Source: Schmidtea polychroa (Eukaryota). Taken from it: a stretch of 64,000 bases of DNA. Of this stretch, positions 1 to 29,616 are shown one piece after another. Below the pieces are notes generated by a model, which was not told the DNA's origin, made no database searches, and saw only the letters and a list, made by a program, of their open reading frames with translations. The DNA is taken from positions 185,442,001 through 185,506,000 of the forward strand of contig CM097885.1 of assembly GCA_044892525.1 (NCBI GenBank). Reading direction: 5' to 3'. Both the position numbers and the translations under genes were made by a program. The stretch's first letter is position 1. Every line of letters begins with the position of its first letter.

Positions 1-7
1 TTTCTTT

Positions 8-355
8 TTGTTTGATGATGATAATGAAAGAATGAAATGGTTTGTGAAATGTGATTATAATAGTAAGCTTGAAAAGGGTGATGTTATAATGACTAGTTAT
101 GATTTACCACACGGAAATTGGTATGTTAATACTCATTCACATGGACTACATAAAGTTAAAAGTAAGAATATTCATTTTTCTAGTTCACTTGTACAATATA
201 TAGATTTAATATTTTATGAAAAAAAGGTTGATGTTGATGAAGTTCGTAAAGCATTGAGAGAATTGTATAAAGATATCCTCTCAACAAGAGTTTCTTTTGA
301 TATCCGAGTATTGGTGCCAGATGGTGCTCAGAAGAATAAAGTCTTATTTTTTTAA
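8..355 (+). CDS. Hypothetical protein, probably part of the Maverick/Polinton element (may extend upstream of the window)
   Basis: 115-aa ORF ending 8 bp before the gasderminX-like ORF on the same strand, with intronless virus-like packing; no motif recognised. Confidence 0.4.
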   Translation: MFDDDNERMKWFVKCDYNSKLEKGDVIMTSYDLPHGNWYVNTHSHGLHKVKSKNIHFSSSLVQYIDLIFYEKKVDVDEVRKALRELYKDILSTRVSFDIRVLVPDGAQKNKVLFF

Positions 356-363
356 TTATTAAA

Positions 364-960
364 ATGGAAGAAGTAAGAGAAGAAAAAATTTACCCAGAAT
401 TGAGATCATCAAGATATTATTCTTCCAAGGCCTCGGCTCCCACAGAACTTGAAATTATGAGAGTAAAAGAATTTAAATCAGAAACCTTACATTTAAAAGA
501 TTTATTAAAGCATTATAAAAAAATTAAAAATAGATGGAATAAAGGGAATACAGTTTTAAAAGTTATAGGTTATTCTTTAGGATTTGCATCTGCAATATTA
601 ACAGTTATTTTACCCATAACTTTACCAGTTGTTACTCTTGCACCTGTAATACTTGGAAGTATTTCTGTGGCTGATGGTTTCTTAACTGAAATAGTTTCAT
701 TATCTTATACTTCTAAAAAGAAAAGTTTATATAGAGAAGTTTGTTTATCAATAGAATTAGGAATCTCTAAATTATTTTTATTTCAATTAAAAGCTTTGGA
801 AGATGGAATCCTGACAGACGAAGAAATAATGAAATCAAATCAAATAATACAAGATATAAAGAATGAGGTTATAAGATTAAAAAGGGAGGGCATGGTGGCT
901 AATGTTATAAGTAATAAAAAAACATCTCGAGAAAAATGGTTAAAGAATTCTTACTTATAA
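364..960 (+). CDS. Maverick/adintovirus conserved membrane-active protein (gasderminX-like)
   Basis: Starts with IYPEL, then a basic helix (HYKKIKNRW), a long hydrophobic hairpin (VLKVIGYSLGFASAILTVILPITLPVVTLAPVILGSISV), and ends with SKLFLFQLKALEDGILTDEEI. This is the pattern of the Polinton/adintovirus 'gasderminX' ORF. It is convergent with pPolB. Confidence 0.7.
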   Translation: MEEVREEKIYPELRSSRYYSSKASAPTELEIMRVKEFKSETLHLKDLLKHYKKIKNRWNKGNTVLKVIGYSLGFASAILTVILPITLPVVTLAPVILGSISVADGFLTEIVSLSYTSKKKSLYREVCLSIELGISKLFLFQLKALEDGILTDEEIMKSNQIIQDIKNEVIRLKREGMVANVISNKKTSREKWLKNSYL

Positions 961-1054
961 AATGGGTGTATTTTTAAAAAAGTAGATCAGGTTGCTATAG
1001 TTGCTTAAATTAATTGTCGACATTTTATTATTAAAAAATTAAATATCGTTGGTT

Positions 1055-4000
1055 TCAGTTATGGTTGAAAGCCAACCTATGAATCATTAATTTATGATCT
1101 TTAAATTCTTTATCACTTAGACCTTTTATATATTCAGGATCAGTATTAAAATATTTAAGTTCTAAACATATAGGATTAAAAACATGAGAACATAAAGGTT
1201 TCTCGATTTCTCTCTCGGGATAAATAATTTCAACATTATAAATATCAAGATCAGTAATCTTTGTATCATATAACTTATTCAACTTTTCTAGATTTTTTAT
1301 TATAGGGATTAAATTATTTCCAATAGGTAGAGTTGTCTTTAAATCACTTAGTATGAATCTCTTATCATCATAATTTGATAATGATACTTTTTGAGATTCT
1401 ATCAAGTGAATATCATGGTTTTCACTTTTAAGTTGATGTATTTCATCAATTTTATCTTTATGATTTGGATTCAATGTATCTATATAATCTTGATGAGAAA
1501 GATTCTTTGCAACCACTCTCTGTATTCCTTTACATCTGTTATCCTTTACAGGTTTTTCTTCTTGTCTCTCTGGTCCTTTAGGAAATATAGGATATCTATG
1601 TGTAATGGTTTCTTCTGTTTCTGGAGTTTTAAATATAAATGATCTAGTTATAAATTCAGGGTTTCTAAATGTTTCGTATGAATATTGTTTAGCACGAATA
1701 AATATTCCATTTTCTATAGGAGTAAAAGGTTTTTCATCTTTAAACGAAAATAGTTCTCCAGATGAATTTATTAAATTTGAAAGTATAGGATTTTCTTTCA
1801 TATCTTTTTGTAAATCATGAGTTCTTATTGTTAAAAACATTGAATCTGTATCCATTGCATGCATTGATATATTTGCTCCGTATATAGGTTGTAAGATGTT
1901 ATAATATGTTTCATACATTTGTAATTTTGAAAGTTCTAAAATTGTAAACCCTATAAATATTGGTTTGTTATATGTTTTCTCATAATTTTTTAATTCTACT
2001 GCAGTAAGATTTTCAGAAAATACTTGTGCGTTTTTAAATGTAGGCTTTCCTAGCATGCGATTATAACGCTTAATATCTTTGGTAGTATTTGTTAGGAGTT
2101 CAATATGAGTATATTTATCAACATTCTCCATTGTTTTCCCAAAGACTGAATTGTTTAAAATTTTATAATTATTATCTTTAAAAAGATTACCTTCTCTTTT
2201 TGCAATGTTTCGGCACCTAATGTTCTCCTCGATAAAAGCTTTCATGAATGGAGTTTGTTTAAATCTTATGACACTATGAACTTTTTTTAATATCATTCCT
2301 CGTGAAAGATAAAATTGGAGGAGTCTATAGTGACAAAGATAAAACCTTCGATCTGTTTGATCACAAAGAAGTTTCATTGTTGGAGGTTTATCTTGTGAGA
2401 TTTGCCATTCAGAAAGTTCGTTGATATCAATCTTTCTTCTTATGGGAGCTAAAGGAAAATATCTTGTTCCTGATTTTATATCATCTGGATAGTCGAGGTT
2501 GCATTCTATAAAGTAACCTATTGGAGAATCTTTCGATGTTGAAAGTATTTCTTTCATAAGGTCATCTGTTGGGTTCTCTATTTCAGTGAAATCACCCATT
2601 GGTAAAAATTGAGTCATAATTCCTGAATATAAAGCTGTTGCATCTATATAAAGTATAAATATAGGATTTTTCATTGTTTCTAATAATTCTTTTAATTCCT
2701 CATTGTTAATTTTCATATATGGATCATCAGGGTGTTTAGATAGTCTTCGGCTAGTAGTTATTGCATTTCTAGCTTTTATTTCTCTATTCCCCATTACTGA
2801 AGAGACTCCTCCTCTAATGTTTGTTTTAATTTGGTTAAACATATCGAGGTTAGTTAAAAGATCTATAATTTTATCACCTTCTTGTATATTTGAAGTCCAA
2901 ATGGTATATAACATAGTATCCCAAGCTAAAGAGGGTGCAGTTATATAATTATAAGGTTTAAGAACAAAAGATTTTGTAAATTCTTCAAAGCAATCTGCTA
3001 GAATATAAACATCCAAGGATAAATACATACTTGTATATTCTCCTAAAGTTTTACACTTGAATAATTCCCACATTTTATTTGCTCGAGAATATTCTTGATT
3101 TGTAATATGATTTTTTTGAAGTTGTGAATAGAAATCTTCTTGGCTAGGAAGACTTGTTTCATTATATCTTTCAAACGAGTCAACATAGTCATAAGGATAT
3201 ATTCCTTTTGCTAAACATGTAGGATATTCTTCTAGAGGAATATTATTTTTTTCCAAGAATTCTCGAGTGATTTTAAAATTTTCTGGTTTCATTGTTTTTG
3301 CTACTGCATCTAAAGACATTTGGAGAAAGTTTAACGAGTCTATAAATTTTAATTTTCCATATTCAATTGATTTATATTTTTCCTTTGTTAAGCCGATAAC
3401 TTTGAAAGAGTTTTTAGCATTTGCTGCGAGGTGTTTAATAAATAGATGTATGTCATATCCAAAAAGATTATGAAATATAACAGGTATAAATTTAGGAGTA
3501 TGGCAATTAAGATTGCAATTTTTATGAGCTGCTCCTCGATAATTATTTTCCTTTTTTAAATGATCATGATCTATAACTTTTTCATCAGGAAGAATATTCT
3601 GTTTACACATCCAACAGTTGGAAGTATTTTCATATTCTTGTTGTTGTTGATTAGAAATATTTTGAGGATACTTTGTTTTTAATATTTTAAATATTTCATG
3701 TTCTAGATCATTTATATTTTTAGTAAAATGATTCAAGACTTCTTCAGGGGTACCTCCTAGAATTGAATATTCTCTAGATTCTATGAGTTCAGGATAATTA
3801 CTTTTAAATAATAATTTATAAGCAGATGGTAATTGTTTAGTTTTTTTAACACTATTAGGTTTATTTCTTTTTCTTAGAAAGGCTTTCATCCTCTCTGGTT
3901 TCATCTTCTCTCCTGAGGAGTTCCATAAATCCATGAGTTTATTTTTTTCTATTATTTTTAAATATTGATAAACCAAATCTTGTTCATGGTTTATAGATTC

Positions 4001-5389
4001 AAAGTCACCATAAAGAACTCCAACTGTTTGTAGTAAATTTGAAAAGTTTTTAAAATACATCTTGGGACTATTAGGCATTTTAATTAAAGCTGGATCATCT
4101 TTTTCACAAAATCTTGTATGTTTAATCATAGAGTTTTTAGTTATTGAATAATGAAGACATCTTTTACATGTTCCTCCTCCACTAGTTGGATTCTCTGGTG
4201 ATGTAAAAGCTTGAAAGTTTTTTATTAAAACATAATGTTGATTATTTTGTTGTTCCAAGATTAAAAGATATATCTCGTTGTCCTGTGCTCCGTTATCCTT
4301 GGTTCCACTATCTGAAATATAAATTGGAATAATTTCTTTCCCTATAACATGTTCATAAATATTAAGTTTAAGATTATTTAATTTTTCAAATTCTGGAATG
4401 TCTTCTAGTTTCATTGGGTGTTTGAATCCTTTGGGAAATATTAATTCATTTTCATATTGTTTGTATCTTGAAACTCTTTGGGGATTTGTTGCTTGAGGAT
4501 GTAAATGTGCAAGTATTGACTAGATGAAACATTTGTTATCATTATTCTGTACATTTATAACATTTTTAGATTTAAAGGGTGTAGGAATATAAGATTTAGG
4601 ATTGGGTGGTAATCCTCTCCAATAATCAATCACTAAAGTTTGGAAAGAGTTGAATACTAAGTTTGAATCTCCTAATTCATTTTCTACTTCCTCTTGTTTT
4701 GCTTCTGCTGCTTTAATTATTTCTTTGATGGTTTTATCAAATCCTTTAATTGAAAATAAATATTTAAAAGGTATTCCAATTTCAACATCTAAGGGTGTTG
4801 TCTTTTCTTCTGCTCCTCGCCAGTATTTTGCTTTGATTATAATTTTATATTTTATAACATTATACCTTGTCGGTTTATAATTTTTTAAAGCTTCAGTGAA
4901 AGAATTTTTAATATTTTTTTTATTTTTATTTATATATTCTCCAGGAGTTGCAGGCCCATTAATTTTTAATTGAAATTCATCTATATGATTAAAATTATCC
5001 CAGTTATATTTTTCTCTTTCAACATGATCAGGTTCTCCTTCTGAATGACATTCCTCATCGTCAGAATTTTGTTTTTTATTTTTACATTCTTTTATATGTT
5101 CTAAATAATAGAAATTTAGTTTTGTTGAAAAGTTACAATGAGGACATGTAAATATTTCTCTATTTTTCCCGATACAATTTTCAAAATGTTTATTATATCC
5201 AGAATGTAGAAATCTTCCTTTACATTTAGGACAAACTTTTGAATTTGTATCATTAAGATTATTTTCTTTTAATAAATGAGCTTTCGATTTTAAGTGAGAA
5301 ATTAATCCAGTTTTATTTTTAAAAACTTTATTGCAAATATTACAATTCATTTTTAGAAAAAAATTTTTTATTGGATACCCTGTTTTCAT
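1055..5389 (-). pseudogene. Protein-primed family B DNA polymerase (pPolB) of a Maverick/Polinton, ~1444 codons, interrupted by one in-frame TAG at 4520-4522
   Basis: ORFs 4520..5389 and 1055..4414 are in the same frame and read INVQNNDNKCFI*SILAHLHPQATNPQRVSRYKQYENELIFPKGFKHPMKLEDI across the stop. Motifs present: N-terminal C2H2-like fingers, endonuclease-VII-like CWMC...DHDH...YRGAAHKNCN, ExoI GDFES, ExoII FHNLFGYD, ExoIII YLSLDVYILAD, PolA YIDATALY, PolB KILNNSVFGK, PolC MDTDS. Confidence 0.93.
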
Positions 5390-5457
5390 TTTATTTTTTA
5401 AGATTTATATTATTCATTTTTTATAATAAAAATTTAAAAAATGACAAAAAATCCAAA

Positions 5458-5539
5458 CCTTGATGGCGCAGTGGGCTAGACTGACACAGTGGTTCAAAAT
5501 GCTAGCGGTTCAAATCACATCTGAGGTTAGTTTTTTTTT
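5458..5539 (+). ncRNA. Putative tRNA-like Pol III transcription unit, copy 1
   Basis: A-box-like TGGCGCAGTGG, B-box-like GGTTCAAATC at tRNA-like spacing, then a T run immediately downstream. No clean cloverleaf could be folded. Confidence 0.45.
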
Positions 5540-5690
5540 CAACATAAAATAATATTAAAAATTTGAAAATAATATTGAAAATAGTGTGGGTATCTTATAT
5601 TTATAAAGTACTTGTATATTTTATTTTATTTATTTTATTTTATTTTATTTTTTTATAAATTAAAAATTAAAAAAATGACAAAAATCCAAT

Positions 5691-5772
5691 CCTAGATAGC
5701 GCAGTGGGCTAGACCGGCACCGTGGTTCAAATGGATAGTGGTTCAAATCACATCTGAGGTTAGTTTTTTTTC
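5691..5772 (+). ncRNA. Putative tRNA-like Pol III transcription unit, copy 2
   Basis: A-box-like TAGCGCAGTGG and B-box-like GGTTCAAATC. The 5' CCTAGAT can pair with the 3' ATCT(G)AGG. A T run follows. Confidence 0.45.
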
Positions 5773-6559
5773 AACATAAAATAATATTAAAAATTTGAAA
5801 ATAATATTGAAAATAGTGTGGGTATCTTATATTTATAAAGTACTTGTATATTTTATTTTATTTATTTTATTTTATTTTATTTTTTAGTAATTAATTATTT
5901 TTTAAACATAAATATGAAAAAAAAAATATTGAAACGGGTGATGGTGGCAAACCGGTAATTATCGCCACCTGTCTTTCGAACACCCCCGGATCGATCCCGG
6001 TAATGTGCACATTTATTTCTCAGTTGTTTTCGGACCTCTTTCGAATTCGCTTTCGAATTCATTTGTACTTTCGAGCAGCACACTTAAAACGCCGATGAAA
6101 TCGACTTCGTGAGCGAGAAGCGAATAATAAGGTGTGCTGCTATTATCGGATTGATTCTGATGTATGAGTCTGGCCAGCTTGTATATTGGAAGAGATTCGA
6201 TAAACGAAAGAGGTTGATAAATAAAAAAAATGATCCGGATCAAAAAAACTGTTGAGGGGACAGTGAAAAAAAAAATACCACTGTCCCCTCAGAGCAGTTT
6301 TACTATTTTTCATTTATTTTTTAATTTATATAATTTAAAATCAATAATCTGATAAAGATCAAATAGCCCTCTAACTTTTTCATAATGCCATTTTCTTTTC
6401 TATTCTCTTTTTAGTTTGAAGCTTTTGAGTTTGAGGCTTTAAAGATTAAAACAGTTAGAGTCATTAAGGGTGGTTGTTTTCAAAATATAGGGCTAAAATA
6501 CTATAAAAGTATAAGTTTTAGGTTGTTTTTCTAATAGCTTAAGTGATTTGGAGGCATGT

Positions 6560-7530
6560 TTTTGTTGGGGGGCTGTTTTGGTTGGGTATATAACCACACT
6601 ACTCGGATAAAACGAAAAACAAGATACCCTAGAAAACTTTAAAACACGGTTTTTACAAAATGGATACCCAAAGGAGTTCGTAGAAAAATACTTCTTGAGT
6701 GAATATAACTCTAATAGGCATGATACACAAAAGGAACATGTCAATAAGCGAGTAATATACCTACACTTCCCTTTTTTAAACAATAAGACATGTAACACAA
6801 TCAGAGCTTACATTCGCAATATGGTGCTGCCAGTTCATATTCGCCAAATTTTTATAACTGCTGCACCTTTGAAATCACAGCTTCGTAAGTCTCAAAAATC
6901 TCTAACATCAGACCTATTTCATCGAGATTGTATATGCCAATCCTCCACAAAATGTTTCTGCTTCTCAAAGAACATCCTTTACCAAATTACTTGCACAAGA
7001 TGTAACACATCGTACATAGGCGAAACACGTAGAACGTTTCAAACAAGACTCAACGAACACGTCAAGAGCAAAACCAGCAATTATCACGAACACTGGAAAA
7101 AAACCACAAATCAGCACCACTCTTACACGAAACAAATTGCAAAATGTTACAAGATGCGTTTAAAAACTCATTGCAAAGATTAGCCACTGAGACTCTTTAC
7201 ATCAAAAAACTTAAACCGTCCATCAACATTCAACAAAATTAATACTTAAATTAATATTTAATTAGATTTAAAATTAAAAAAATATTTAAAATTTAAAATA
7301 TAAAAAACGTTTTTTTTGCTAAAGAATTAAAAATTTAATTAAATTATAGAGTTTAAAATTTAAAAAAAATAGGAAATAATTTTTGGATAATTAAAATAAA
7401 ATATAAATAGAATATAGTTAAACCAATAAATTTATTATAAAATACTAAATTTATTATCCCCCAACAATAATTATTTAATGTAATAATGATCAAATTCATC
7501 TGAAAAAGGCAGTGCCGAAAATTTGTGAGT
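6560..7530 (+). mobile_element. Penelope-like retroelement (PLE) 3' remnant with GIY-YIG endonuclease
   Basis: NGYPKEF (end of the RT thumb) leads into ORF 6695..7183 with CFCFSKNILYQITCTRCNTSYIGETRRTFQTRLNEH (GIY-YIG). A frameshifted tail with a KKLKPSINIQ-like end follows, then a pLTR-like hammerhead at ~7494-7530. Confidence 0.8.
7494..7530 (+). ncRNA. Degenerate minimal type I hammerhead ribozyme in a PLE terminal repeat
   Basis: ATTCAT-CTGAAAA-A-GGC(AGT)GCC-GAAA-AT-TT-GTGAGT. Stem I is ATTCAT/GTGAGT (two G-U pairs), stem II is GGC/GCC, and the stem III core is palindromic AATT. The core CUGAnGA has G changed to A. Confidence 0.55.
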
Positions 7531-8699: not shown

Positions 8700-9900
8700 A
8701 CTTGCGGATGAGAGACATTTTCAAAGACATTTTTCAATCTCAGCAGGTCTACTTTTAATTAATAATTTTACTGGATAAAAAAATCATAAAAATCTTAGGT
8801 AGTTTGTGTAGATTGTGTAGTTAGGTTCCTTGATGAAATTAATAATATTAGTAATAATATAGTTTTTCCCCTTTTTAAAAATAATTATAAAATGAAAATA
8901 ACTATGACAACTGCTGATCGTCTTTCTTTTTATTCGGTAACTAAATGTTATCTGTGTAAGAAAACTTTAGCTGGCAAGGTTAGAGACGATGATCATTTTA
9001 TTTGTAATTTTTTGGGAGCAGCTTGTTTCACTTGAAATATTTCTAGACAATTAAAATTTGAATTTCCCATAGTTTTTCATAATTTAAGATAATATGACCT
9101 TCATCATATCCTCAAATCTGGTTTAAGTGATTTTAAATTTTTGGAAAATAAGTTGTATTCTTATAGCAAGTAAAAAGTTCCATTCTTTGGCTACAAGTAT
9201 CGGTGGATTAACTGTAAAATTCATTGAATCTTGACAATTCATTAATAGTTCATTAACCGAATCTGTCAAAACTTTAACGAGATCTGAGTTTGTAGGTAGT
9301 ATTGTTGACAGCAAATACATTTCCATATAATTTTACTACTTCTTTAGAAGTTTTAGAAAACACTTTTGAACTTCCACTAATTTGGGAAGGCGTGATTGAC
9401 ATTGAATGCAAAAAGGCGAAATCTATTTGGAAAGAAACCAATTGTGAGACTTTCTTCGATTATCTGATGGTTTATTTTAAACTTGATGTTTTTCTTTTGA
9501 CTACCTTTTCCAGCAATTTCGTTCAAAATCTTTAAATCACAACCGATTGGATCCACTTAATATTTACGGAATTCCCGATATGTCTTGGGCATCAGCTCTT
9601 ATTATTTTTGATCAACCTATCAAACTTCTCCAGGATATGGGGATGTATGATATTTTCGAAGGAGGATCCGTGGTGGATTAACTTTTGTTAACAAATATCA
9701 CGTAGTATCATCAGACACTACTGAATTATTATACATTGATAGAAATAATTTTTAAAGATGGACATTATCGCAAAAGTTACCTTATGATAATTTAAATGGG
9801 TTACCGATAATAATAAATTAATTAATTAAATTAAATCGATGGATTACTCCGGATTAAATTACAGCATTATGTAATTAATCCGAGGAGGAAGGAGAGGGGT
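8700..9900 (+). pseudogene. Second, heavily decayed Maverick-type pPolB remnant
   Basis: Broken-frame translation gives DCVVRFLDEI, KCYLCKKTLAGKVRDDDHF (endonuclease VII-like), FPIVFHNL..YDLH (ExoII), YLMVYFKLDVFLL (ExoIII), GIRGGLTFVNKYH and LLYIDRNNF (PolA). It has many stops and frameshifts and lies on the opposite strand to the first pPolB. Confidence 0.75.
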
Positions 9901-10366
9901 AGTGGCCTAGAAAAAGGGTTTTCAAGCCAAATATTCCATTAGTCTTANNNNNNNNNNNNNNNNNNNNNNNNNNNNNNNNNNNNNNNNNNNNNNNNNNNNN
10001 NNNNNNNNNNNNNNNNNNNNNNNNNNNNNNNNNNNNNNNNNNNNNNNNNNNNNNNNNNNNNNNNNNNNNNNNNNNNNNNNNNNNNNNNNNNNNTTATTTG
10101 TACGACTATCATTANNNNNNNNNNNNNNNNNNNNNNNNNNNNNNNNNNNNNNNNNNNNNNNNNNNNNNNNNNNNNNNNNNNNNNNNNNNNNNNNNNNNNN
10201 NNNNNNNNNNNNNNNNNNNNNNNNNNNNNNNNNNNNNNNNNNNNNNNNNNNNNNNNNNNNNNNNNNNNNNNNNNNNNNNNNNNATTATAAGATAAATAAG
10301 AATTAATAAGCAAGTATATATTTTCACAAATTTAATGGCACCACCTGCCACAAAAATAAAATTTGA

Positions 10367-11776
10367 TTAATCATGATCTGCAGTTTGATAAAGCTTTCTA
10401 TTTTTCGTCTCATAAGGTAGAACAAAACTGATAATGAATGCTATAAAATTTAATGCGAAAAAAATTAACGTTCCACCAACAAATGAATATTGAGCGATGA
10501 CAATATTAACAATGAATGGTGCCAAAACCCCTCCAATTCGTGACCAACTATTACAGAAGCCTGTGGCAAAACTTCTGACTGAGGTTGGAAAGACTTCTGT
10601 TGTATATATATAATTTGTATTTTGGAAACTTTTTATTGCGCCTCGAGTAAAAAACAGCAAAATACTGATTATAGTCGGAGTTAAGCAAAAATTCAAAAAT
10701 AACATTCCAGCACAAATAACTGATGTATAAATTGTAAATGTAAGTTTTCTACCAACCGTATTGATAAAAAGTAGAGATAAAGGGACAAATAAAATTTCCC
10801 CACTGGCTGATAATAACATATTTTTATAATCACTAACTGTCATTTCAAAACAACACGAATTGTCTATAGTCTCATTCATCTTGTTCTTGAGGATTTGCGA
10901 AACAACGGACCTGTCTTGTAAACATCTGTGAGGTATTTTATTTAAAATCGTAAGAATTAATATTAATCCGTAATAAGTTAGGCCGGAAATAAACCACATA
11001 AAGGACATGAGAAATGTTGTTAGAATATAATTGGGATGAAGCAAATCTTTAAACGATGATGAAAGCACTGGAACATCTTGAAAATCAGATATACGTTTGT
11101 CTGGAGTGTTCTTTTTTGTCATTTAATTTATTATTCGTAAGCATTTTGCTTATTGATTGTGCAATAATAAATATCTTGGAGATTCTGGAGTCCAGATCAT
11201 CGATAACAAAACAAAATAAATTGGAAATGTTGCTATGAATAGAAAAAATTTCCAACCAATTGTTGGAATAATTAAAAAGCCAACAGAAGTTATAAAAATT
11301 GATCCAACTCCCCAAAAGAACTGTAGTAAAACCATAAATGTACCTCGATGGTTCTCAGGAGTCCATTCAGAGAGAAGTGAATAAATCGATGCGGAATTTC
11401 CACCAATGAAAATACCAATAAAAAATCGTATTATAATCATCCGATGAATTGTCGGAGTAACCACACTTAAAGTTCCAAAAAACAAAAGTCCGGAATTCGT
11501 TATTAACAGAGTCGTTTTTCTTCCATATAGATCACTCAATTTTCCAAATAGAGGACTGCCGAAGAATATACCAATAAAAACTCCAGTTTTGAGAATGACA
11601 TCTTCAATAACCGTTATATGCCAATTGCAAGTAAGAATAGGGCCAAGGAAAGCTAGGATCAACATTTCTGTAGCGTCACAAGAGTGAATGATCCCTAGAA
11701 TAAACAGTAAAATGAAATGAAACTTACCAATTTTAATTTCATTCAGAGCTTCATCAAATGACATTTTCCTCTCCAT
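10367..11776 (-). pseudogene. SVOP: SVOP-like MFS transporter, copy 1, inactivated by two nonsense changes
   Basis: Same sequence as copies 2 and 3, but CAA>TAA at 11150-11152 and at 11123-11125 (HNQ*AKCLRIIN*MTKK). Confidence 0.88.
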
Positions 11777-12809
11777 TCAATAATTTTGAATTACGCGTAG
11801 ATTAGTGAATATTGTCACAATTTAGTGGTCACTTGCAATGGATACTTATAAGTTCATTCATATATTTGCTAGGTTTCATTGTTATACTTGAATACATTGT
11901 TACTAATAAGAAAGAAAACATTAATTTCGTACAATTATGCTGGTATTTTATTGCATAGACTGATATATAGATTAGAAAACTTTTTTTAAATCTAATATTC
12001 TTAAAATAACAAAAGGTAGATCANNNNNNNNNNNNNNNNNNNNNNNNNNNNNNNNNNNNNNNNNNNNNNNNNNNNNNNNNNNNNNNNNNNNNNNNNNNNN
12101 NNNNNNNNNNNNNNNNNNNNNNNNNNNNNNNNNNNNNNNNNNNNNNNNNNNNNNNNNNNNNNNNNNNNNNNNNNNNNNNNNNNNNNNNNNNNNNNNNNNN
12201 NNNNNNNNNNNNNNNNNNNNNNNNNNNNNAACGTGTAATTTGTGAGTCGTTATTGATAGAGTCATTAAATCCAAAAATTAATTTGCAGAATGTAGTGAAT
12301 ACTTGTGTTTTAAATGTTTTTATATAATTTTTTTGCATATTTGTATGTATGGATTGTTGTTGTTAAATGAAATAATTAATAAATTACTAAATTACTAGAG
12401 CTCGTACGGCATTAATTAATTTCGTCAACGGTGCAGTATTTTTGCTGTAGTGTTGATCAACACAACACTAAGGCTTATCGTAGTGAGTCCAGTGCGGCCA
12501 CTAAAGTAGGTAAATTTTAATTAAATGACTATTTTTGCAAGTAAATAACATACGTAAACTGACATTTAAAATTATGTGAACTACACATTACTAGGATCTA
12601 TAAATGGAAAAAAACCCTCAGACTCAAAATCGCCACAAAACACTTTTCTCTTATTATAGCCAGTTAATTGTCGAATAAAATGATCTTCTTCTGCTAAAGA
12701 ACTTTAGTTAAAATTACCAAGTTCATTAATTCTAAACTATGGCTATTCTATAAAAAACATTGATACTCCTTTTAGCTAACAATACTAATTACTTATGAAA
12801 TATTATGAA

Positions 12810-13130
12810 ATATTATCATTCTATTTAACGATGTTCAATTGAAAAGTAACTACCTAAAATCTTGATCTACCCTATATTTACCTCTATTCATCCTAAGGCT
12901 AACTCAAGTCACTTAATTCCATTACTTATAAAGTATTATCATTCTACTTAACAATGTTCATTTGAAAAATAAACACCTAAAATCTCGATCTAACTCTATA
13001 GCTGTCTCGATTCCTCTTAATGTTAATTATAAATGCTTAATTTCACTATTTATAACATATTGTGATTCTAGTTATTAGTTTTCCTTTACAAAAGACCCCC
13101 TAAAAATCTTGATCCACCTCTATATCATAA
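12810..13130. repeat. Degenerate ~120-bp tandem repeat, ~3 units (also in unit 2; unit 3 breaks inside it)
   Basis: The motif tattatcattcta...aatgttca.ttgaaaa...cctaaaatct.gatcta recurs with divergence. Confidence 0.55.
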
Positions 13131-13282
13131 TGTTAATTATAATTCTTGATATTATTATAATAATTTAAATTTTATAAATAAATATATAAAAAATTTATAA
13201 ATTTTTCCTAAACACACCCTCAAGTTGTGTAATAGTCAAAATCAATGTTACAAATACTAATTTAAATTACATATATATATTA

Positions 13283-14755
13283 TTGGACACTTTAAAAGTT
13301 GAATTGGACACTTTAAAAGTTGAATTGGACATATTAAAAGTTAAATTGGACACTAGTTATAAAACTGTAAAAGACGTGAATTTATATTTCAAATAAGACG
13401 ACTTTAATCAAACATGATCTTTCAAATTTTAAATCGCTCTCCTGCCACTGCTTTTGAAATGTTATTCATCATATGCATAACATATCCACAACAATCACCC
13501 GGGTTAATATTGTTCAAGCCATTACAGATAATATCCCGTAGATTTACATTATCCACATTCGATTATAAAATATTCTTGACGAAACTCTTCAACTTACTCC
13601 ATGCATTTTCGATGGGATTCAGCATGTATGAATAGGGTGAGAGAAATTTCAATACAAATCCGGTATCAGTAAAGATGTTTCGTATATAATCAGTTTTATG
13701 AATTTGAGCATTATCTAAAACTATCCATGCACCATTGTAAATCTCATCGCGTTGAATAATCGCAATTAGCTCCATTAAAAAATCACCGAATATTGAACTT
13801 GTACAAGTACTGTCGTCAACAATGCGGCTATGAATAATTTTGTTTGAATTCATTGCTGCAATAACAGTTACATTTCGACCTCTCACTGTTGGCATCACGA
13901 TATTTGCCCTTGTTCCAATTTTTGAGCGGGCGGTAGTTCGACGAATATGTAGATTAAAACCACATTCGTCTATAAAAATGCATTTCTCTTTCAGCGCGGG
14001 AGCATTTCGGGCAAAATCCAATGCGTATCGTCGTCTCTTTTCAATGGTTTCTGGTAAATTTACTCGTTCAAGTTCACGAGAAGCCTTTTTACATGTAATA
14101 CGAAGCTTCTCAAGACATTTAGACACAGACGTGGTTGATAAAGACACTCCTTCGGCTTCAAGTTTGTTTTTTATCATTTTTAAAGTAGTTTGATTATGGT
14201 TCTCCACAAAAAATTCAATTCGGTCTAGTATATTATCCGTAATTTTTGTTTTATTGTTACCACCTCTTTTTCCTACAATAAAAGTTCCTTTACGCTTGTA
14301 GTTGTTTATTATCGTTCTCGCGGTGCTCTCATTAAATCTGCAAGCAGCTGCTGCTTCCCTTATTGTTTTCCCGTCCACTGTGACCATGCTTATTAGCACC
14401 ATTTTAACGTCCCGGGTGGATTTGGCATACGATTTCTTTATAGGAGATTCGCGATTCTCATGCACATCCGCACCATCAATTTCAGTTTCTTCAATGTTTG
14501 ATTCGTCTGAAAATTTATAATATCGGCCATTTGACATGATTAATGATTTCAAACGATTATATATATTTGGGGGGTATTTAGTTGCTATGTTCTGTATATA
14601 AAGTATTTCTATAAAAACACATATTAAATAGTAGGGGTGTTATAAATAATGTCCAATTTAACTTTTAAAGTGTCCAATTCAACTTTTAAAGTGTCCAATT
14701 CAAATTCGAAAGTGTCTAATTTAAAATGGAAAGTGTCTAATTTAACGCGAAAATG

Positions 14756-14756
<1 letters not shown>
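13283..14756 (-). mobile_element. Tc1/IS630-family DNA transposon (DD34E), copy 1; transposase 13563..14552 truncated by a premature TAA
   Basis: HTH region plus FIDECGF...VLDNAQIH-(34 aa)-NPIE. The ends carry inverted arrays of a 21-bp unit (TTGGACACTTTAAAAGTTGAA x4 on the left, x5 on the right), and the right end is followed by (TA)n. The frame continues ~46 codons past the TAA to a TGA at 13422-13424. Confidence 0.88.
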
Positions 14757-14797
<41 letters not shown>

Positions 14798-15030
14798 TAA
14801 ACTTTAAAAATCAAGTCTATTTTTCCCATCTCTACTTTTAGGTTAGATATTGTTAGTAAACAACTGTATCATGATCATTACAAATCATACCCATCTCAAC
14901 CCATCCTAGTAGACTATCATGACATATACAACTTTATTATTATTGTTAATATGATTATTATCATTCTTATAAGATTCATATTATTATTCTCATTTTCATT
15001 ATTATTATGGTTTTTATTATTATAAATCCC

Positions 15031-18000
15031 TGTAGTTTTATTGACACAAGGAAATCACAACGTTTTTTAAATTCTATTTTTATCACAAAATCTGCATATT
15101 AAAACAAATTTAATTATGCAATTACATCTCCGCGTGATTTTCATCTTCGTTCTCAATAAAACTGGTTTCATAATCATCGACATATCGAGGTCTTTTCGTC
15201 CTGCCTCTACGTTCATCTCGGCGAAGTGTGTTGAGTGTAGGATTGTCTACGTCTGTTAATTCATCATCGTCGTTGTTCTCCACTGACGCTTCGTTGACAG
15301 CCGGTCGTATGTCGGAATAGTGTCGCCGAATACCGTTGATGTCGAAATTAGTTGATGAGTTCACCTTCGTTACAATCCCTTCACCCCATGTCGATGTGCA
15401 CTTCGCGTTTTGTGGTTTAACGTAAACTGCATCGCCAACTTGGAACGACGTGTCCTGTGTCTTCTCTTCTGTATAACAAGCACCAACTCCTTTCCAGCAA
15501 TATGAAAACACGGATGAAAACGGCGGTGTTCTGCACTTGTCATTGGGTGCTAGGTTATACCAATATACCATTTCCAATATTCCCTTGTTGGTTCTTGCTG
15601 CCAAGCGTTTAATTGTACGATGGTTCCGTTCTATTATGCCATTTCCTGATGGCTGATAAGCACATCGAAACACACATTTCACACCCCATTTGCGACACAG
15701 TACTTTCATTTGTGTCGACCGAAATGATGTCGCATTATCAATCAACAGCTCATCAGGGAACCTCGGTCTCTAAAAATCTGTTCAAGATTCCGTGTAATGG
15801 TCTCCGCGTCTTCACCTCTTATTTCTCTCCACAGAGCAAAACGACCCGGTCCACAATCAATCATAGTTAAATAAAGCTTACTTAGATAGTGTGTAACATC
15901 CATAGCCAGTCTCTTCCACGTCTCCTTAACGCTTAACTCTCCATGCTCCCATTTTACAGGCGCCGGATCGATAGATTGACATTCTGAACATTCACTAATT
16001 ATAGCCTTTACATCCTCAAGTGTAACGTCCGGCAAAGTTGCTTTGCAAAATACAACGTCTTCTGGGCACCGAAATGGTGCTGTCTATGACTTTCTCGTAA
16101 CACTTGGCTCACAACAGCAATGGTGCTTGCAGTTGGTTCGACACACGATTTAACCCATGTCAGCCCTTTATTACTGACTCTTGTGAGTGCATCTGCTTTG
16201 TTTTTATCTGTCGGGACAAACTCAACCGAGATCGTTAAGTCATAGCTTTTTCGTAATTCACAGATGATCTGCAGACGTCTTCGGACTAGCATCTCAGCAA
16301 TTCCATGAGTTCGGATTCTGGCAGTATCCGTTAAAACTGAATCTATTCAACTCCTGACGGTAGTAGAATCTGTTACTACAACTAAGTTGCTTCTTTCCCA
16401 GCTAATAGCTAAGTTAATTCCCTTTTTCACAGCGTCTAACTCTACAAGGTTTATATGAGCAAAATCGTTTTTCTTCCTCATCCATGATGCATCTTCGACG
16501 ATTTTTCCTGATATTTCTAACGCAACTCCTAATGCCAGATTGCTCGCATCGCACAAGACAATCGTAGATCCGTCCTTGTTTACGTGCCACTCACCAGTCA
16601 CGGGATCGCTCTCTTTCACCACGATATATCATTTCGTTAACCATTTTTAACGTGATTTTTCCAATCGTATCATCCCACTTACTTCCAGCACTGTGTCGTT
16701 TTATATAGTTACTTGCTACTCTTAACCATCTAGCAACAGGATAGTGCCCAACGAGTTGACCACAGAGGGAAAATAACTCCCTTCTTGACATAGTTGTAAA
16801 CGCACTGTGTGGCAAACTGTTTTCACGATGCCACGTACGACCATTAATACTTGTTTGAAGCTGGAGACCTAGCACTCTTGCATCATCAAACTCTTCCGGT
16901 GACTTTGTAATTAGCCTGTATGCTGCTAAATGGCTTATTACGTTTATTCTTGACTGGTTGACAATAATTTCATCAATACAACTATCTGTTGCTTTCCTGA
17001 TATATTCTCTTAAACTCAGTATCTTCCGTAATATTGTTGACATTATTTTCGGAGCCACATTTAAACCAAAACCGAGTCTCGTTAGAAAGTATCCGTTCCC
17101 TTTGTAACTAACCCTTTGGTGCTCCCATAGGTCTTCATCAACATGTATCTGAAGATAAACATTTTTAAGATCAATTAACATAACCTGCTCGCCCATCATT
17201 CTCTATCGCCTTAATGATTCGCCACATACATCACTTTGTCCAGTATGGCTACTAACATATTTATTTAGTTCTCGAAAATCCATTCCTGGACAAACTTTTC
17301 CTTTATTTGCTTGCTCTACTGCCAATAACGGAATTTTTCCATACACGACGTATTTCGTTGGAATTAGCCATCCTTCTTGAATCCACCGTTCAACCTCCAT
17401 GTCAAACTTGTGCTGCAACCCTGGATCGATTTTATAATTTGAAATTCTATTCAATAGTACAGCTGGTTCTGCTTTCCATTTCCACTTCACGGTCCACTTG
17501 CCGTCACTTAATGCTGCCGAAAAATCACCATCTTCAATTTGCAAATTCTCATTTAACTGATTCACAGCCACGCACGATACGTTTGCAATACCTGGAAAAG
17601 ATACACCCGTCTTGTCAATTTTAAGACCTCCCAGCATCCCTATTACGTCCATTCCTAAAATCATTTCAACATTAAGTGTTAGTTTCATCAACGAAACACA
17701 ATTAACACTCAATAAACTACCACCAACAATCAGCTGAACTTTCACATCACGCATACACTTGACTAGTGATCCATCCGCAGTCATGATACTCCCATTTCGT
17801 ATAAATCGTTTCTTCGCTATTCTGGCTGACACAACTGATTTGGAACATCCTGAGTCGATCAATGCTTTTACGGACTCCCCATTGATTATGACTGAAATAA
17901 ACTGCAACGCCATTATATTCGTGCTAGAGTAGGCGCTGGCGCACGCGCTACTCCTTTGGCATTTCCCGACTCTGAATTCCTGGTACACTCCTTTACAATG

Positions 18001-18870
18001 TGGCCCTCTTTTGTACATAGCCAACACTTCTTTCCTTGTTTCTTGAAACAACATTCTTCTAGATGGCCATTCTTTCCGCAATACGAGCATTTCTTTTTCT
18101 TGTCTTGTTTTCCCACGAAATTAGTTGATGAGTTCACCTTCGTTACAATCCCTTCACCCCATGTCGATGTGCACTTCGCGTTTGGTGGTTTAACGTAAAC
18201 TGCATCGCCAACTTGGAACGACGTGTCCTGTGCCTTCTCTTCTGTATAACAAGCGCCAACTCCTTCCCACGACAGCCGAACACAGTTCCATATTGTCACA
18301 GTTTACTAAGACACGAGACTGTTTCAAGACCTCAACAAGAGACATCTGCTGAATATTGGCATTGGATCGAAACTGTTGTGACGACACTGCTGGCAAACCC
18401 ATTATTAATACGCTTTTAATTATGATTTCGTTATCTATCTTGGCCAGAGATGCTAAGTTTTTGAGATCATTCAAATAGACATCTACTGGCTCATTGCACC
18501 ACCTTCGTTCACGGAATCGGTCATATGCTTGGAACATATCGATCGAATAGACATCGGTTAAGGCATGCTCGATCTTCAATGCCTTGCCTTTGTCTTCCGT
18601 GCTCAAATGCTGATATACTGCAAAAGCTGGTCCATCTAGATATAAAGGAATTATTTATTCCAACTCCACGATTTTTTGAATTTTTGCCACTAGCTTCACT
18701 TTCTGAATCCACTGTTAAACTTCACCTTCTCCATTGAAAATAGGTATCATCTTGTCCATGATATGGCCGCGATAGCTTGTAGTTTTATTGACACAAGGAA
18801 ATCACGTTTTTTAAATTATATTTTTATCACAAAATCTGCATATTAAAACAAATTTAATTATGCAATTACA
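15031..18870 (-). mobile_element. Compact Ty3/Gypsy LTR retrotransposon (3840 bp), copy 1, decayed gag-pol
   Basis: TG...CA LTRs at 15031-15126 (96 bp) and 18778-18870 (93 bp), with flanks ATCCC/ATTCC (probable 5-bp TSD, 1 mismatch). Gag starts at ATG 18759 and has two CCHC knuckles. Protease ALIDSGC; RT LTRLGFGLNVAP and a degenerate CIDEI; RNase H CDASNLALG; integrase H..H..C..C, AMDVT and IDNATSF in PR-RT-RH-IN order. Several stops and frameshifts. Confidence 0.92.
18766..18777 (-). promoter_or_regulatory. Candidate non-canonical primer binding site AGCTATCGCGGC directly after the 5' LTR (also 27544-27555)
   Basis: It abuts the LTR terminal CA and there is no TGG-type PBS. The plus-strand reading GCCGCGATAGCT resembles nt 1-12 of eukaryotic tRNA-Phe (GCCG..ATAGCTCAG). 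Confidence 0.5.
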
Positions 18871-19145
18871 ATTCCATTATNNNNNNNNNNNNNNNNNNNN
18901 NNNNNNNNNNNNNNNNNNNNNNNNNNNNNNNNNNNNNNNNNNNNNNNNNNNNNNNNNNNNNNNNNNNNNNNNNNNNNNNNNNNNNNNNNNNNNNNNNNNN
19001 NNNNNNNNNNNNNNNNNNNNNNNNNNNNNNNNNNNNNNNNNNNNNNNNNNNNNNNNNNNNNNATTATAAGATAAATAAGAATTAATAAGCAAGTATATAT
19101 TTTCACAAATTTAATGGCACCACCTGCCACAAAAATAAAATTTGA

Positions 19146-20555
19146 TTAATCATGATCTGCAGTTTGATAAAGCTTTCTATTTTTCGTCTCATAAGGTAGA
19201 ACAAAACTGATAATGAATGCTATAAAATTTAATGCGAAAAAAATTAACGTTCCACCAACAAATGAATATTGAGCGATGACAATATTAACAATGAATGGTG
19301 CCAAAACCCCTCCAATTCGTGACCAACTATTACAGAAGCCTGTGGCAAAACTTCTGACTGAGGTTGGAAAGACTTCTGTTGTATATATATAATTTGTATT
19401 TTGGAAACTTTTTATTGCGCCTCGAGTAAAAAACAGCAAAATACTGATTATAGTCGGAGTTAAGCAAAAATTCAAAAATAACATTCCAGCACAAATAACT
19501 GATGTATAAATTGTAAATGTAAGTTTTCTACCAACCGTATTGATAAAAAGTAGAGATAAAGGGACAAATAAAATTTCCCCACTGGCTGATAATAACATAT
19601 TTTTATAATCACTAACTGTCATTTCAAAACAACACGAATTGTCTATAGTCTCATTCATCTTGTTCTTGAGGATTTGCGAAACAACGGACCTGTCTTGTAA
19701 ACATCTGTGAGGTATTTTATTTAAAATCGTAAGAATTAATATTAATCCGTAATAAGTTAGGCCGGAAATAAACCACATAAAGGACATGAGAAATGTTGTT
19801 AGAATATAATTGGGATGAAGCAAATCTTTAAACGATGATGAAAGCACTGGAACATCTTGAAAATCAGATATACGTTTGTCTGGAGTGTTCTTTTTTGTCA
19901 TTTGATTTATTATTCGTAAGCATTTTGCTTGTTGATTGTGCAATAATAAATATCTTGGAGATTCTGGAGTCCAGATCATCGATAACAAAACAAAATAAAT
20001 TGGAAATGTTGCTATGAATAGAAAAAATTTCCAACCAATTGTTGGAATAATTAAAAAGCCAACAGAAGTTATAAAAATTGATCCAACTCCCCAAAAGAAC
20101 TGTAGTAAAACCATAAATGTACCTCGATGGTTCTCAGGAGTCCATTCAGAGAGAAGTGAATAAATCGATGCGGAATTTCCACCAATGAAAATACCAATAA
20201 AAAATCGTATTATAATCATCCAATGAATTGTCGGAGTAACCACACTTAAAGTTCCAAAAAACAAAAGTCCGGAATTCGTTATTAACAGAGTCGTTTTTCT
20301 TCCATATAGATCACTCAATTTTCCAAATAGAGGACTGCCGAAGAATATACCAATAAAAACTCCAGTTTTGAGAATGACATCTTCAATAACTGTTATATGC
20401 CAATTGCAAGTAAGAATAGGGCCAAGGAAAGCTAGGATCAACATTTCTGTAGCGTCACATGAGTGAATGATCCCTAGAATAAACAGTAAAATGAAATGAA
20501 ACTTCCCAATTTTAATTTCATTCAGAGCTTCATCAAATGACATTTTCCTCTCCAT
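19146..20555 (-). CDS. SVOP: Synaptic vesicle 2-related (SVOP-like) major facilitator superfamily transporter, copy 2, intronless, 469 aa
   Basis: 12-TM MFS pattern with SVOP hallmarks: FDEALNEIKIGKFH, DATEMLILAFLGP, LSDLYGRK, WTPESPRY, TYYGLILIL, INTVGRK, YIYTTEVFPTSVRS, LPYETKNR. Confidence 0.85.
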   Translation of the reverse strand: MERKMSFDEALNEIKIGKFHFILLFILGIIHSCDATEMLILAFLGPILTCNWHITVIEDVILKTGVFIGIFFGSPLFGKLSDLYGRKTTLLITNSGLLFFGTLSVVTPTIHWMIIIRFFIGIFIGGNSASIYSLLSEWTPENHRGTFMVLLQFFWGVGSIFITSVGFLIIPTIGWKFFLFIATFPIYFVLLSMIWTPESPRYLLLHNQQAKCLRIINQMTKKNTPDKRISDFQDVPVLSSSFKDLLHPNYILTTFLMSFMWFISGLTYYGLILILTILNKIPHRCLQDRSVVSQILKNKMNETIDNSCCFEMTVSDYKNMLLSASGEILFVPLSLLFINTVGRKLTFTIYTSVICAGMLFLNFCLTPTIISILLFFTRGAIKSFQNTNYIYTTEVFPTSVRSFATGFCNSWSRIGGVLAPFIVNIVIAQYSFVGGTLIFFALNFIAFIISFVLPYETKNRKLYQTADHD

Positions 20556-22070
20556 TCAATAATTTTGAATTACGCGTAGATTAGTGAATATTGTCACAAT
20601 TTAGTGGTCACTTGCAATGGATACTTATAAGTTCATTCATATATTTGCTAGGTTTCATTGTTATACTTGAATACATTGTTACTAATAAGAAAGAAAACAT
20701 TAATTTCGTACAATTATGCTGGTATTTTATTGCATAGACTGATATATAGATTAGAAAACTTTTTTTAAATCTATTATTCTTAAAATAACAAAAGGTAGAT
20801 CANNNNNNNNNNNNNNNNNNNNNNNNNNNNNNNNNNNNNNNNNNNNNNNNNNNNNNNNNNNNNNNNNNNNNNNNNNNNNNNNNNNNNNNNNNNNNNNNNN
20901 NNNNNNNNNNNNNNNNNNNNNNNNNNNNNNNNNNNNNNNNNNNNNNNNNNNNNNNNNNNNNNNNNNNNNNNNNNNNNNNNNNNNNNNNNNNNNNNNNNNN
21001 NNNNNNNNNNNNNNNNNAACGTGTAATTTGTGAGTCGTTATTGATAAAGTCATTAAATCCAAAAATTAATTTGCAGAATGTAGTGAATACTTGTGTTTTA
21101 AATGTTTTTATATAATTTTTTTGCATATTTGTATGTATGGATTGTTGTTGTTAAATGAAATAATTAATAAATTACTAAATTACTAGAGCTCGTACGGCAT
21201 TAATTAATTTCGTCAACGGTGCAGTATTTTTGCTGTAGTGTTGATCAACACAACACTAAGGCTTATCGTAGTGAGTCCAGTGCGGCCACTAAAGTAGGTA
21301 AATTTTAATTAAATGACTATTTTTGCAAGTAAATAACATACGTAAACTGACATTTAAAATTATGTGAACTACACATTACTAGGATCTATAAAGGGAAAAA
21401 AACCCTCAGACTCAAAATCGCCACAAAACACTTTTCTCTTATTATAGCCAGTTAATTGTCGAATAAAATGATCTTCTTCTGCTAAAGAACTTTAGTTAAA
21501 ATTACCAAGTTCATTAATTCTAAACTATGGCTATTCTATAAAAAACATTGATACTCCTTTTAGCTAACAATACTAATTACTTATGAAATATTATGAAATA
21601 TTATCATTCTATTTAACGATGTTCAATTGAAAAGTAACTACCTAAAATCTTGATCTACCCTATATTTACCTCTATTCATCCTAAGGCTAACTCAAGTCAC
21701 TTAATTCTATTACTTATAAAGTATTATCATTCTACTTAACAATGTTCATTTGAAAAATAAACACCTAAAATCTCGATCTAACTCTATAGCTGTCTCGATT
21801 CCTCTTAATGTTAATTATAAATGCTTAATTTCACTATTTATAACATATTGTGATTCTAGTTATTAGTTTTCCTTTACAAAAGACCCCCTAAAAATCTTGA
21901 TCCACCTCTATATCATAATGTTAATTATAATTCTTGATATTATTATAATAATTTAAATTTTATAAATAAATATATAAAAAATTTATAAATTTTTCCTAAA
22001 CACACCCTCAAGTTGTGTAATAGTCAAAATCAATGTTACAAATACTAATTTAAATTACATATATATATTA

Positions 22071-23543: not shown

Positions 23544-23544
<1 letters not shown>
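22071..23544 (-). mobile_element. Tc1/IS630-family DNA transposon, copy 2 (transposase 22351..23340)
   Basis: Near-identical to copy 1 (E>D and D>Y changes) with the same premature TAA, so it was copied with the segment rather than transposed independently. Confidence 0.88.
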
Positions 23545-23575
<31 letters not shown>

Positions 23576-23808
23576 TAAACTTTAAAAATCAAGTCTATTT
23601 TTCCCATCTCTACTTTTAGGTTAGATATTGTTAGTAAACAACTGTATCATGATCATTACAAATCATACCCATCTCAACCCATCCTAGTAGACTATCATGA
23701 CATATACAACTTTATTATTATTGTTAATATGATTATTATCATTCTTATAAGATTCATATTATTATTCTCATTTTCATTATTATTATGGTTTTTATTATTA
23801 TAAATCCC

Positions 23809-26800: not shown

Positions 26801-27648
26801 AACACTTCTTTCCTTGTTTCTTGAAACAACATTCTTCTAGATGGCCATTCTTTCCGCAATACGAGCATTTCTTTTTCTTGTCTTGTTTTCCCACGAAATT
26901 AGTTGATGAGTTCACCTTCGTTACAATCCCTTCACCCCATGTCGATGTGCACTTCGCGTTTGGTGGTTTAACGTAAACTGCATCGCCAACTTGGAACGAC
27001 GTGTCCTGTGCCTTCTCTTCTGTATAACAAGCGCCAACTCCTTCCCACGACAGCCGAACACAGTTCCATATTGTCACAGTTTACTAAGACACGAGACTGT
27101 TTCAAGACCTCAACAAGAGACATCTGCTGAATATTGGCATTGGATCGAAACTGTTGTGACGACACTGCTGGCAAACCCATTATTAATACGCTTTTAATTA
27201 TGATTTCGTTATCTATCTTGGCCAGAGATGCTAAGTTTTTGAGATCATTCAAATAGACATCTACTGGCTCATTGCACCACCTTCGTTCACGGAATCGGTC
27301 ATATGCTTGGAACATATCGATCGAATAGACATCGGTTAAGGCATGCTCGATCTTCAATGCCTTGCCTTTGTCTTCCGTGCTCAAATGCTGATATACTGCA
27401 AAAGCTGGTCCATCTAGATATAAAGGAATTATTTATTCCAACTCCACGATTTTTTGAATTTTTGCCACTAGCTTCACTTTCTGAATCCACTGTTAAACTT
27501 CACCTTCTCCATTGAAAATAGGTATCATCTTGTCCATGATATGGCCGCGATAGCTTGTAGTTTTATTGACACAAGGAAATCACGTTTTTTAAATTATATT
27601 TTTATCACAAAATCTGCATATTAAAACAAATTTAATTATGCAATTACA
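23809..27648 (-). mobile_element. Compact Ty3/Gypsy LTR retrotransposon, copy 2
   Basis: LTRs at 23809-23904 and 27556-27648; same lesions and flanks as copy 1. Confidence 0.92.
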
Positions 27649-29614: not shown

Positions 29615-29616
29615 TA

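Follow-up and report, generated by a model that had tools for sequence, protein, structure and literature searches.

The terminal inverted repeats of a Maverick (Polinton) element in Schmidtea polychroa carry a module of RNA polymerase III (Pol III) type that is real, conserved and apparently undescribed. It combines short tRNA-like cassettes, each with a tRNA-like head, and an adjacent long unit whose predicted RNA is rich in hairpins; one copy lies in the window, the 64,000-nucleotide stretch of DNA analysed here. With a probability that we put at about one half, the cassettes are promoter/terminator units in both repeats that bind Pol III factors, and the hairpin-rich RNA of the adjacent long unit is the functional product.

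Mavericks are usually viewed as protein-coding elements, with terminal repeats that are plain ends for replication and integration. With a conserved Pol III module in such repeats, a DNA transposon or endogenous virus would have a non-coding means of resisting silencing, and the VA/EBER/TMER theme would reach into the Polinton branch. The module has roughly 3,100 matches in the genome and could thus be, for the host, a considerable drain on TFIIIC or supply of Pol III RNA. It predicts RNAs of about 75, 92 or 365 nt and Pol III occupancy at both ends of the Maverick.

The carrier element

Maverick ends have long terminal inverted repeats, tips made of AGT repeats and a 6-bp target-site duplication, and all of these were found in the window copy and in three others. 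The right terminus of the window copy is at 6603 and its left terminus at L031:1250 (G000:C1:185,433,250), for a span of about 15.35 kb; here L031 is the 10 kb adjoining the window on the left, G000 is this assembly, and L-numbers denote loci that were read.

1055..5389, minus strand: gene for protein-primed DNA polymerase B (pPolB), with PF03175 and a zinc finger
5670..6603, no strand: right terminal inverted repeat, about 935 bp, 99.4% identical to L031:1250-2184
6604..6609, no strand: target-site duplication of 6 bp, repeated beyond the left terminus at L031:1244-1249

In Maverick copies with two heads at each end, the terminal inverted repeat measures about 1,150 bp (L033 and L034 compared). 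An earlier note on this DNA had put the cassettes, which it followed to 5885, at the end of the Maverick; the terminus is actually at 6603, and the cassettes stand in or against the terminal inverted repeats.

The gene set has the marks of a Maverick/Polinton (protein-primed PolB, retroviral-type integrase, packaging ATPase, double-jelly-roll capsid): alongside pPolB there are a double-jelly-roll capsid, an A32-type ATPase and an integrase that includes a PLA2-like domain. Pfam matches in L031 are PF00665 with PF08398, PF04665 and PF21738. PLA2-like genes are named as a mark of the Alpha class in a passage of one survey (PMC8502044). A stop splits the pPolB gene of the window copy into ORFs at 4520-5389 and 1055-4414; other Maverick copies have longer pPolB open frames.

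The two cassettes

The tandem cassettes next to the polymerase gene resolve into the following parts.

5457..5539, plus strand: head A, a tRNA-like type-2 Pol III unit with A box 5464-5474, B box 5507-5516 and a T9 run at 5531-5539
5540..5689, plus strand: AT-rich spacer of the first cassette, with a (TATTT)n tract
5690..5771, plus strand: head B, the second tRNA-like Pol III unit, with A box 5697-5707, B box 5740-5749 and a T8 run at 5764-5771
5772..5935, plus strand: AT-rich spacer from head B to the long unit

Most of what the earlier note had described here is borne out. Its two 233-bp repeats appear in TRF as a tandem repeat at 5388-5885 with a period of 232 bp (232-233) and 2.2 copies. 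The A box, the B box at tRNA-like distance and the T-run that it saw in each repeat are present in both heads, with the B box 43 nt past the A box, and the divergent arrangement some 70 bp upstream of pPolB was measured as 68 bp from the start of head A to the pPolB start codon (5389), in opposite orientation. Both heads have the A and B boxes 30-60 nt apart and the T-run expected of a tRNA gene (consensus in the part of PMC12498455 consulted), and each holds an extra B-box-like word at the position of the anticodon arm (5491-5498 in head A). A scan for an A box, B box and T-run finds 2 units in window positions 1-6603 and 3 in the 10 kb of L031, as against a single degenerate match in the other 57 kb of the window, and the cassettes are therefore not chance occurrences.

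Head B is part of the terminal inverted repeat, with the same head in the left repeat, and head A is a tandem extra. The two heads are identical at 66 of 76 positions in an ungapped alignment, and the cassette spacers match at 98% over 127 nt. The contrast between divergent heads and similar spacers, put earlier at 9 differences in about 70 positions beside identical spacers, is thus real, although the counts become 10 in 76 and 98%. An 8-base word of the spacer (5583-5590 and 5815-5822) recurs inverted at the very tip of the Maverick, either by chance or as a common protein site.

As tRNA genes the heads were rejected. ARAGORN finds 0 tRNAs in the window, no Rfam tRNA family matches at E values up to 10, and there is no cloverleaf with an anticodon arm. 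Nor do the heads fold better than their shuffles (z +0.3 to +1.1 in four folds), and comparison of head copies for structure or covariation, a check that had been proposed, yields neither a cloverleaf nor a terminal stem common to the variants.

Abundance, variation and ancestry of the heads

In the genome, a 19-mer taken from the head is found 1,700 times without a mismatch (reverse control 0), and the exact terminal word of the Maverick has 963. The question had been raised whether the cassette occurs only with this Maverick family. Maverick sequence was found at 60 of 60 head loci, made up of 30 best-match loci and the 30 first-listed motif loci, and 29 of the latter include the outer repeat and 1 only inner sequence; like those of the long unit, these samples were drawn by motif, chiefly in the first 30 Mb of contig C1, and could miss a diverged free family. 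Cassettes occur at both Maverick ends, 1-3 per end, and all face the terminus. Among 30 loci there is one head per end in 11, two in 18 and three in 1.

Variation was followed in 71 distinct cassettes out of 135 occurrences. Variants carried by at least 4 rows, here called common, occur at 1 of the 31 sites in the boxes, 23 of the 43 head sites outside them and 10 of the 54 sites in the spacer. The retention of the boxes relative to other head sites has p 2e-6, the rows being related copies and the p values descriptive. At A/T sites alone, diversity is 0.19 in the non-box head as compared with 0.06 in the spacer. Because all four combinations occur at 86 of the 171 pairs of common head sites, which thus fail the four-gamete test, the heads are mosaics, assembled from a small number of old modules for the 5' part, the middle and the 3' part. 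The earlier note had judged divergent heads beside unchanging spacers to be the opposite of a neutral pattern. The contrast does hold family-wide, but unequal exchange among tandem cassettes and old variants would produce it without diversifying selection.

With boxes and T-run held, the remainder of the head variable and no cloverleaf, the heads fit promoter/terminator units better than structured RNAs. Descent from tRNAs is likely. Compared with four host tRNAs (Lys, Arg, Trp and Cys), head A is closest to Trp, with 7 of 1000 box-fixed shuffles as good; for head B the comparison with Trp is not significant (70 of 1000, again among four isotypes). Host tRNA genes form very large single-isotype tandem arrays, with 869 Trp-pattern and 1,020 Cys-pattern matches; such arrays lie at G000:C4:55.02 Mb, C1:269.25 Mb and C4:76.66 Mb.

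Left-end units and the host rDNA spacer

The left repeat of the window copy includes two further units, both located by the box scan.

L031:2574-2647: tRNA-like unit C
L031:2807-2881: tRNA-like unit D

The segment around them, L031:2447-2933, is 92-93% identical to the rDNA intergenic spacer in all 3 rDNA contigs read, and unit C resembles tRNA-Cys more closely than any of 1000 shuffles (0 as good, four isotypes compared). The host spacer itself (L325:7285-8470 in G000:C115, and L327 and L329) has 4-5 tRNA-like A/B-box units in tandem, about 243 bp apart and antisense to the rRNA genes; ARAGORN finds none of them, and one type resembles tRNA-Cys. The array is present in 3 of 3 rDNA contigs read.

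Older left ends that were read are without the rDNA-spacer segment. In several older copies a piece of the spacer that has diverged further (76-90%) lies outside the long unit, and in L216 it includes a C unit that faces the terminus. Two subfamilies thus have Pol III-type units in common with the rDNA, at a different place in each, and in both the units face the terminus as the native heads do. The simplest reading is of two separate exchanges between the rDNA spacer and the Maverick, and since the fuller unit array stands in the rDNA, we infer that the direction was from rDNA to Maverick.

An origin of heads A and B in the rDNA spacer was also considered and rejected. BLAST gives no match of either head to the host rDNA spacer, and beyond the boxes there is no significant similarity (100-446 of 1000 shuffles as good). 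An older head type is closer to the spacer, with 15-16 of 1000 shuffles as good.

The long unit

A third unit with A and B boxes, longer than the heads, follows just downstream of the cassettes, outside the range covered by the earlier note (5440..5885), with boxes at the same 43-nt offset as in the heads.

5936..6301, plus strand: long unit, with A-box-like 5945-5955 and B-box-like 5988-5998
6027-6030, plus strand: internal T4 run
6033-6215, plus strand: structured core of three hairpins, followed by A tracts
6143..6203, plus strand: predicted hairpin inside the core, pre-miRNA-sized, 25 pairs including 8 G-U
6245-6301, plus strand: closing hairpin, with T runs at 6298-6322

The predicted sense fold reaches -133 kcal/mol (z -8.2), as against z -4.5 for the antisense. 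Folded separately, the core has z -6.3 and the 97 nt at the start of the unit have z +0.5; the sense fold is lower than the antisense in 9 of 9 long-unit copies (15 shuffles each). In the core helices of the window copy there are 10 G-U and 0 A-C juxtapositions on the sense strand, a count that leans that way through registers chosen from the sense fold.

The core is also the best-kept part of the module. Two older-subfamily copies (L215 and L216) are 94.5% and 95.6% identical to the window in the core, and L185 is 88% identical; elsewhere in older-subfamily copies identity falls to 66-75% in pPolB DNA, 76-78% in the spacer and 78-87% in the head, with an outer repeat that is unalignable. The high identity of the core could instead reflect exchange of repeat segments between subfamilies.

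Support for the fold from substitutions is limited. In an alignment of 22 copies (of 99 units extracted by their two anchor motifs, 21 kept at less than 97.5% identity, one with a long insertion omitted and two added by hand), 94% of cells pair and 14 cells are changed on both sides (0 of 500 shuffles), the structure tested coming from one of the aligned sequences. Five pairs are changed on both sides, a number that 76 of 500 shuffles reach; 3 of them fall in a weak helix, and two are convincing (6082:6133 and 6257:6287). In a larger set of 88 rows, which leaves further C3-array copies aside, pairing is kept by 10 of 13 variants found in at least 4 rows, 4 of 12 found in 2-3 rows and 15 of 46 singletons. 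The singletons are near the 30% expected from the substitution spectrum. Frequent variants differ from singletons with Fisher p 0.009, and pooling all shared variants gives p 0.077. The 5' stems are poorly kept, at 71% paired.

The internal T4 run lies 92 nt into the unit and is present in 19 of 22 aligned copies. Two of the four tRNA genes of the host that were read, those for Trp and Cys, likewise end with T4, and Pol III may therefore terminate ahead of the core.

Across the genome, a 21-mer of the long unit has 3,111 matches at up to 2 mismatches (control 1). All 30 core-motif loci have terminal-repeat sequence around them, and at 27 a full head stands upstream. Among the first 100 exact long-unit matches, 88 are tied by coordinates to a head, a terminus or a locus that was read, and BLAST ties the other 12 to the Maverick. 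The head of the long unit compares with tRNA-Cys at 23 of 1000 shuffles as good (four isotypes compared). Rfam searches with E limits of 10 and of 1 give only sub-threshold chance matches and no VA family, and BLAST gives no match of the long unit to the host rDNA spacer.

An origin of the long unit in a host gene was suggested by a tandem array on contig C3 (G000:C3 about 25.48-25.58 Mb, L190-L212) that looked like a host gene array, and was rejected on finding capsid-gene sequence there. Each array unit, of 964-976 bp, consists of the start of the capsid gene, a shortened head and the long unit; because it carries the start of the capsid gene, the array derives from the left end of a Maverick.

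Contigs of runs labelled as three other organisms cover the core at about 90-97% identity and little else of the repeat. Summed contig depth over the core is 28 times that of the heads and 23 times that of pPolB in run X2, 10 and 7 times in X3 and similar in X1, figures that carry no evidential weight because contig depth cannot rank parts; X1-X3, only guessed to be RNA, were chosen for holding part of the query, and X1 and X2 belong to one study. In the DNA-like run X10, contig depth is flat within 1.7-fold. The comparison skipped AT-rich parts, and the X2 and X3 contigs extend past 6309. It covered contigs of eight runs, among which a lack of cover is no evidence either, and no run recorded as RNA was found to contain this stretch.

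A model for the module

Type-2 boxes are bound by TFIIIC, which recruits TFIIIB (set out in a section of PMC12498455). In the model that we favor, the heads would bind host TFIIIC and TFIIIB at both ends of the Maverick, and would be kept for being bound or transcribed and not for the sequence of their RNA. Loading of Pol III factors would leave the ends accessible and aid the long unit beside them, where transcription with read-through of the internal T4 would yield a long, duplex-rich RNA. This RNA would then counter host silencing, either as a double-stranded decoy or as a precursor of small RNAs; in one animal, Polintons are strongly targeted by piRNAs, according to the portion of PMC8532177 consulted.

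The earlier note had proposed the 70-80-nt head RNAs as an analogue of the adenovirus VA RNAs. The heads do not support that proposal, as they have no fold and no common stem and are mosaics of older variants, and the long unit, with its predicted RNA, is the better VA/TMER-like candidate. In a bolder and distinctly tentative version of the model, Pol III would transcribe both repeats of this lineage into large amounts of an RNA of about 365 nt that blunts host small-RNA silencing, convergent with VA RNAs and TMERs, and the lineage would collect host Pol III cassettes (twice from the rDNA spacer) for TFIIIC loading. If true, abundant Pol III RNA and TFIIIC-loaded ends would help explain the very high copy number of the Maverick.

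Alternative explanations

All of this could be played out in DNA only, with B boxes that position or insulate the element, hairpins that serve as signals for replication, excision or packaging on a displaced single strand, and RNA that is incidental. We consider this unlikely, even though every unit lies in a terminal repeat or borders on one, the antisense strand too has a better fold than its shuffles, the heads keep two B-box-like words and no fold, and the internal T4 could end transcription ahead of the core. The excess of G-U over A-C in the core helices, biased as the registers are toward the sense fold, argues for RNA, and the core lies about 400 bp from the terminus while the outer repeat beside that terminus is not conserved between subfamilies. 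Less probable again is that the head RNAs of 70-80 nt are what functions, as decoys or tRNA mimics that diversify under pressure from the host. Intact boxes and terminators do make short RNAs plausible, several distinct head types coexist in the family, and non-box head sites vary more than the spacer even at A/T sites; yet these RNAs would have neither a folding signal nor a stem common to the variants, recombination among old variants explains the mosaic pattern, and some copies, for example those of the C3 array, are without most of the head interior.

The units could also be neutral passengers, scraps of host tRNA-like and rDNA-spacer sequence that were present in an ancestor and multiplied by copying and homogenisation of the terminal repeats. 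Just such scraps are suggested by the two inner units of the left end, which match the rDNA spacer of the host at 92-93% identity and are absent from older left ends, and young Maverick copies are near-identical throughout. We nevertheless find this improbable as an account of the whole, for the boxes are selectively held (on p values that are descriptive for related rows), and conservation of the long core far exceeds that of its flanks and of the polymerase gene. That a dispersed host SINE or tRNA pseudogene has landed in this copy by accident is hardly credible. The layout of the long unit is indeed SINE-like, with a tRNA-like head, a body and A tracts, and sampling by motif, mostly in the first 30 Mb of C1, might pass over a diverged free family. 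Free copies with target-site duplications of their own, the mark of a SINE, are nonetheless absent from these samples: none stands alone in the 60 head loci, the 30 long-unit loci or the first 100 long-unit matches, and the sole array found outside an element, that on C3, derives by its capsid sequence from a Maverick left end. Promoter/terminator heads beside a functional long-unit RNA thus remain the reading that we prefer.

Relation to known systems

The adenovirus VA RNAs are known by their size and by their roles against PKR and Dicer. They share with the Maverick units tandem arrangement and a carrier with a protein-primed polymerase and a double-jelly-roll capsid, and the long unit is predicted to be similarly rich in imperfect duplex. 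The internal A and B boxes of the VA promoters (stated in the part of PMC12498455 consulted) are a further likeness. The differences are that the Maverick units have no Rfam VA match and sit in terminal repeats, whereas VA genes are mid-genome; the heads, of about 75 nt, are unstructured, and the long unit is about 365 nt. A stable double-stranded fold of VA type is absent from the heads and is predicted, with limited covariation, for the long unit.

Closer in layout are the TMERs of murine gammaherpesvirus 68, tRNA-like Pol III units with hairpins for which transcription and miRNA output have been shown (in the sections of PMC4337559 consulted). These too form a cluster of tRNA-like units at a genome end, have type-2 Pol III boxes and are not working tRNAs, and their tRNA-like head followed by hairpins recalls the Maverick long unit. 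No sequence relation was found, however. The RNA of the Maverick long unit is a predicted one, the short heads have no hairpin, and the units are doubled in the inverted repeats of an integrating element. The combination of a tRNA-like Pol III head with a pre-miRNA-sized hairpin is present at 5936-6301 and absent from heads A and B.

B boxes in the inverted repeats of the Schizosaccharomyces pombe mating-type region bind TFIIIC and act as heterochromatin boundaries, flanking a silenced domain on both sides (as given in a passage of PMC2908685). B boxes in repeats on both flanks are likewise found at the Maverick ends. Here, by contrast, full units with A box, B box and terminator stand on a mobile element, and a binding or barrier role is putative.

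Host-derived non-coding genes are not foreign to Polinton-type elements. Polinton-like viruses carry conventional tRNAs and pieces of rRNA (in the portion of PMC12220804 consulted), and in the part of PMC8502044 consulted tRNAs are mentioned once, in a figure legend on other MELD viruses. The likeness extends to pieces of rDNA. The tRNAs in these two sources are detected by ARAGORN or Rfam and, in the passages concerned, read as codon support; the Maverick units, in contrast, fail both ARAGORN and Rfam, have no cloverleaf and are fixed parts of a terminal repeat.

There is no sign of the module outside this Maverick lineage in the relatives sampled, by tests that are weak. A/B boxes are not enriched at 81 loci of integrase relatives (4 matches, as against 0-8 in shuffles); one of these loci had visible terminal repeats, with no unit inside, which makes for a weak test. 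Five places of this genome with other pPolB elements, decayed and with ill-defined ends, showed no A/B-box units, and viral contigs gave one integrase relative, no pPolB relative and no core-motif match. The earlier note knew of no description of such RNAs in Mavericks, and in agreement with this a search of the open-access literature yielded no account of Pol III units in Maverick terminal repeats and no paper that treats a Polinton together with VA RNA.

Surroundings of the element

A 154-aa ORF, the one ORF compared for this purpose with Pfam and PDB sequences, has no match to TBP. The Maverick is inserted into a Penelope-like element, with a reverse-transcriptase ORF on the left flank (L031:34-1254) and a GIY-YIG ORF on the right (window 6604-7183). 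A palindromic derivative of the Maverick, with the polymerase end on both sides and a 6-bp target-site duplication, occupies L037-L039 (G000:C1:37.277-37.296 Mb). Further along the window, at about 10000-30000, an 8.8-kb unit is repeated about three times and holds an MFS transporter, a Tc1/mariner element and pieces of retroelements. A decayed polymerase fragment at 8900-9750 belongs to a different Maverick-type family, and its neighbourhood is duplicated about 505 kb upstream (G000:C1:184.94 Mb).
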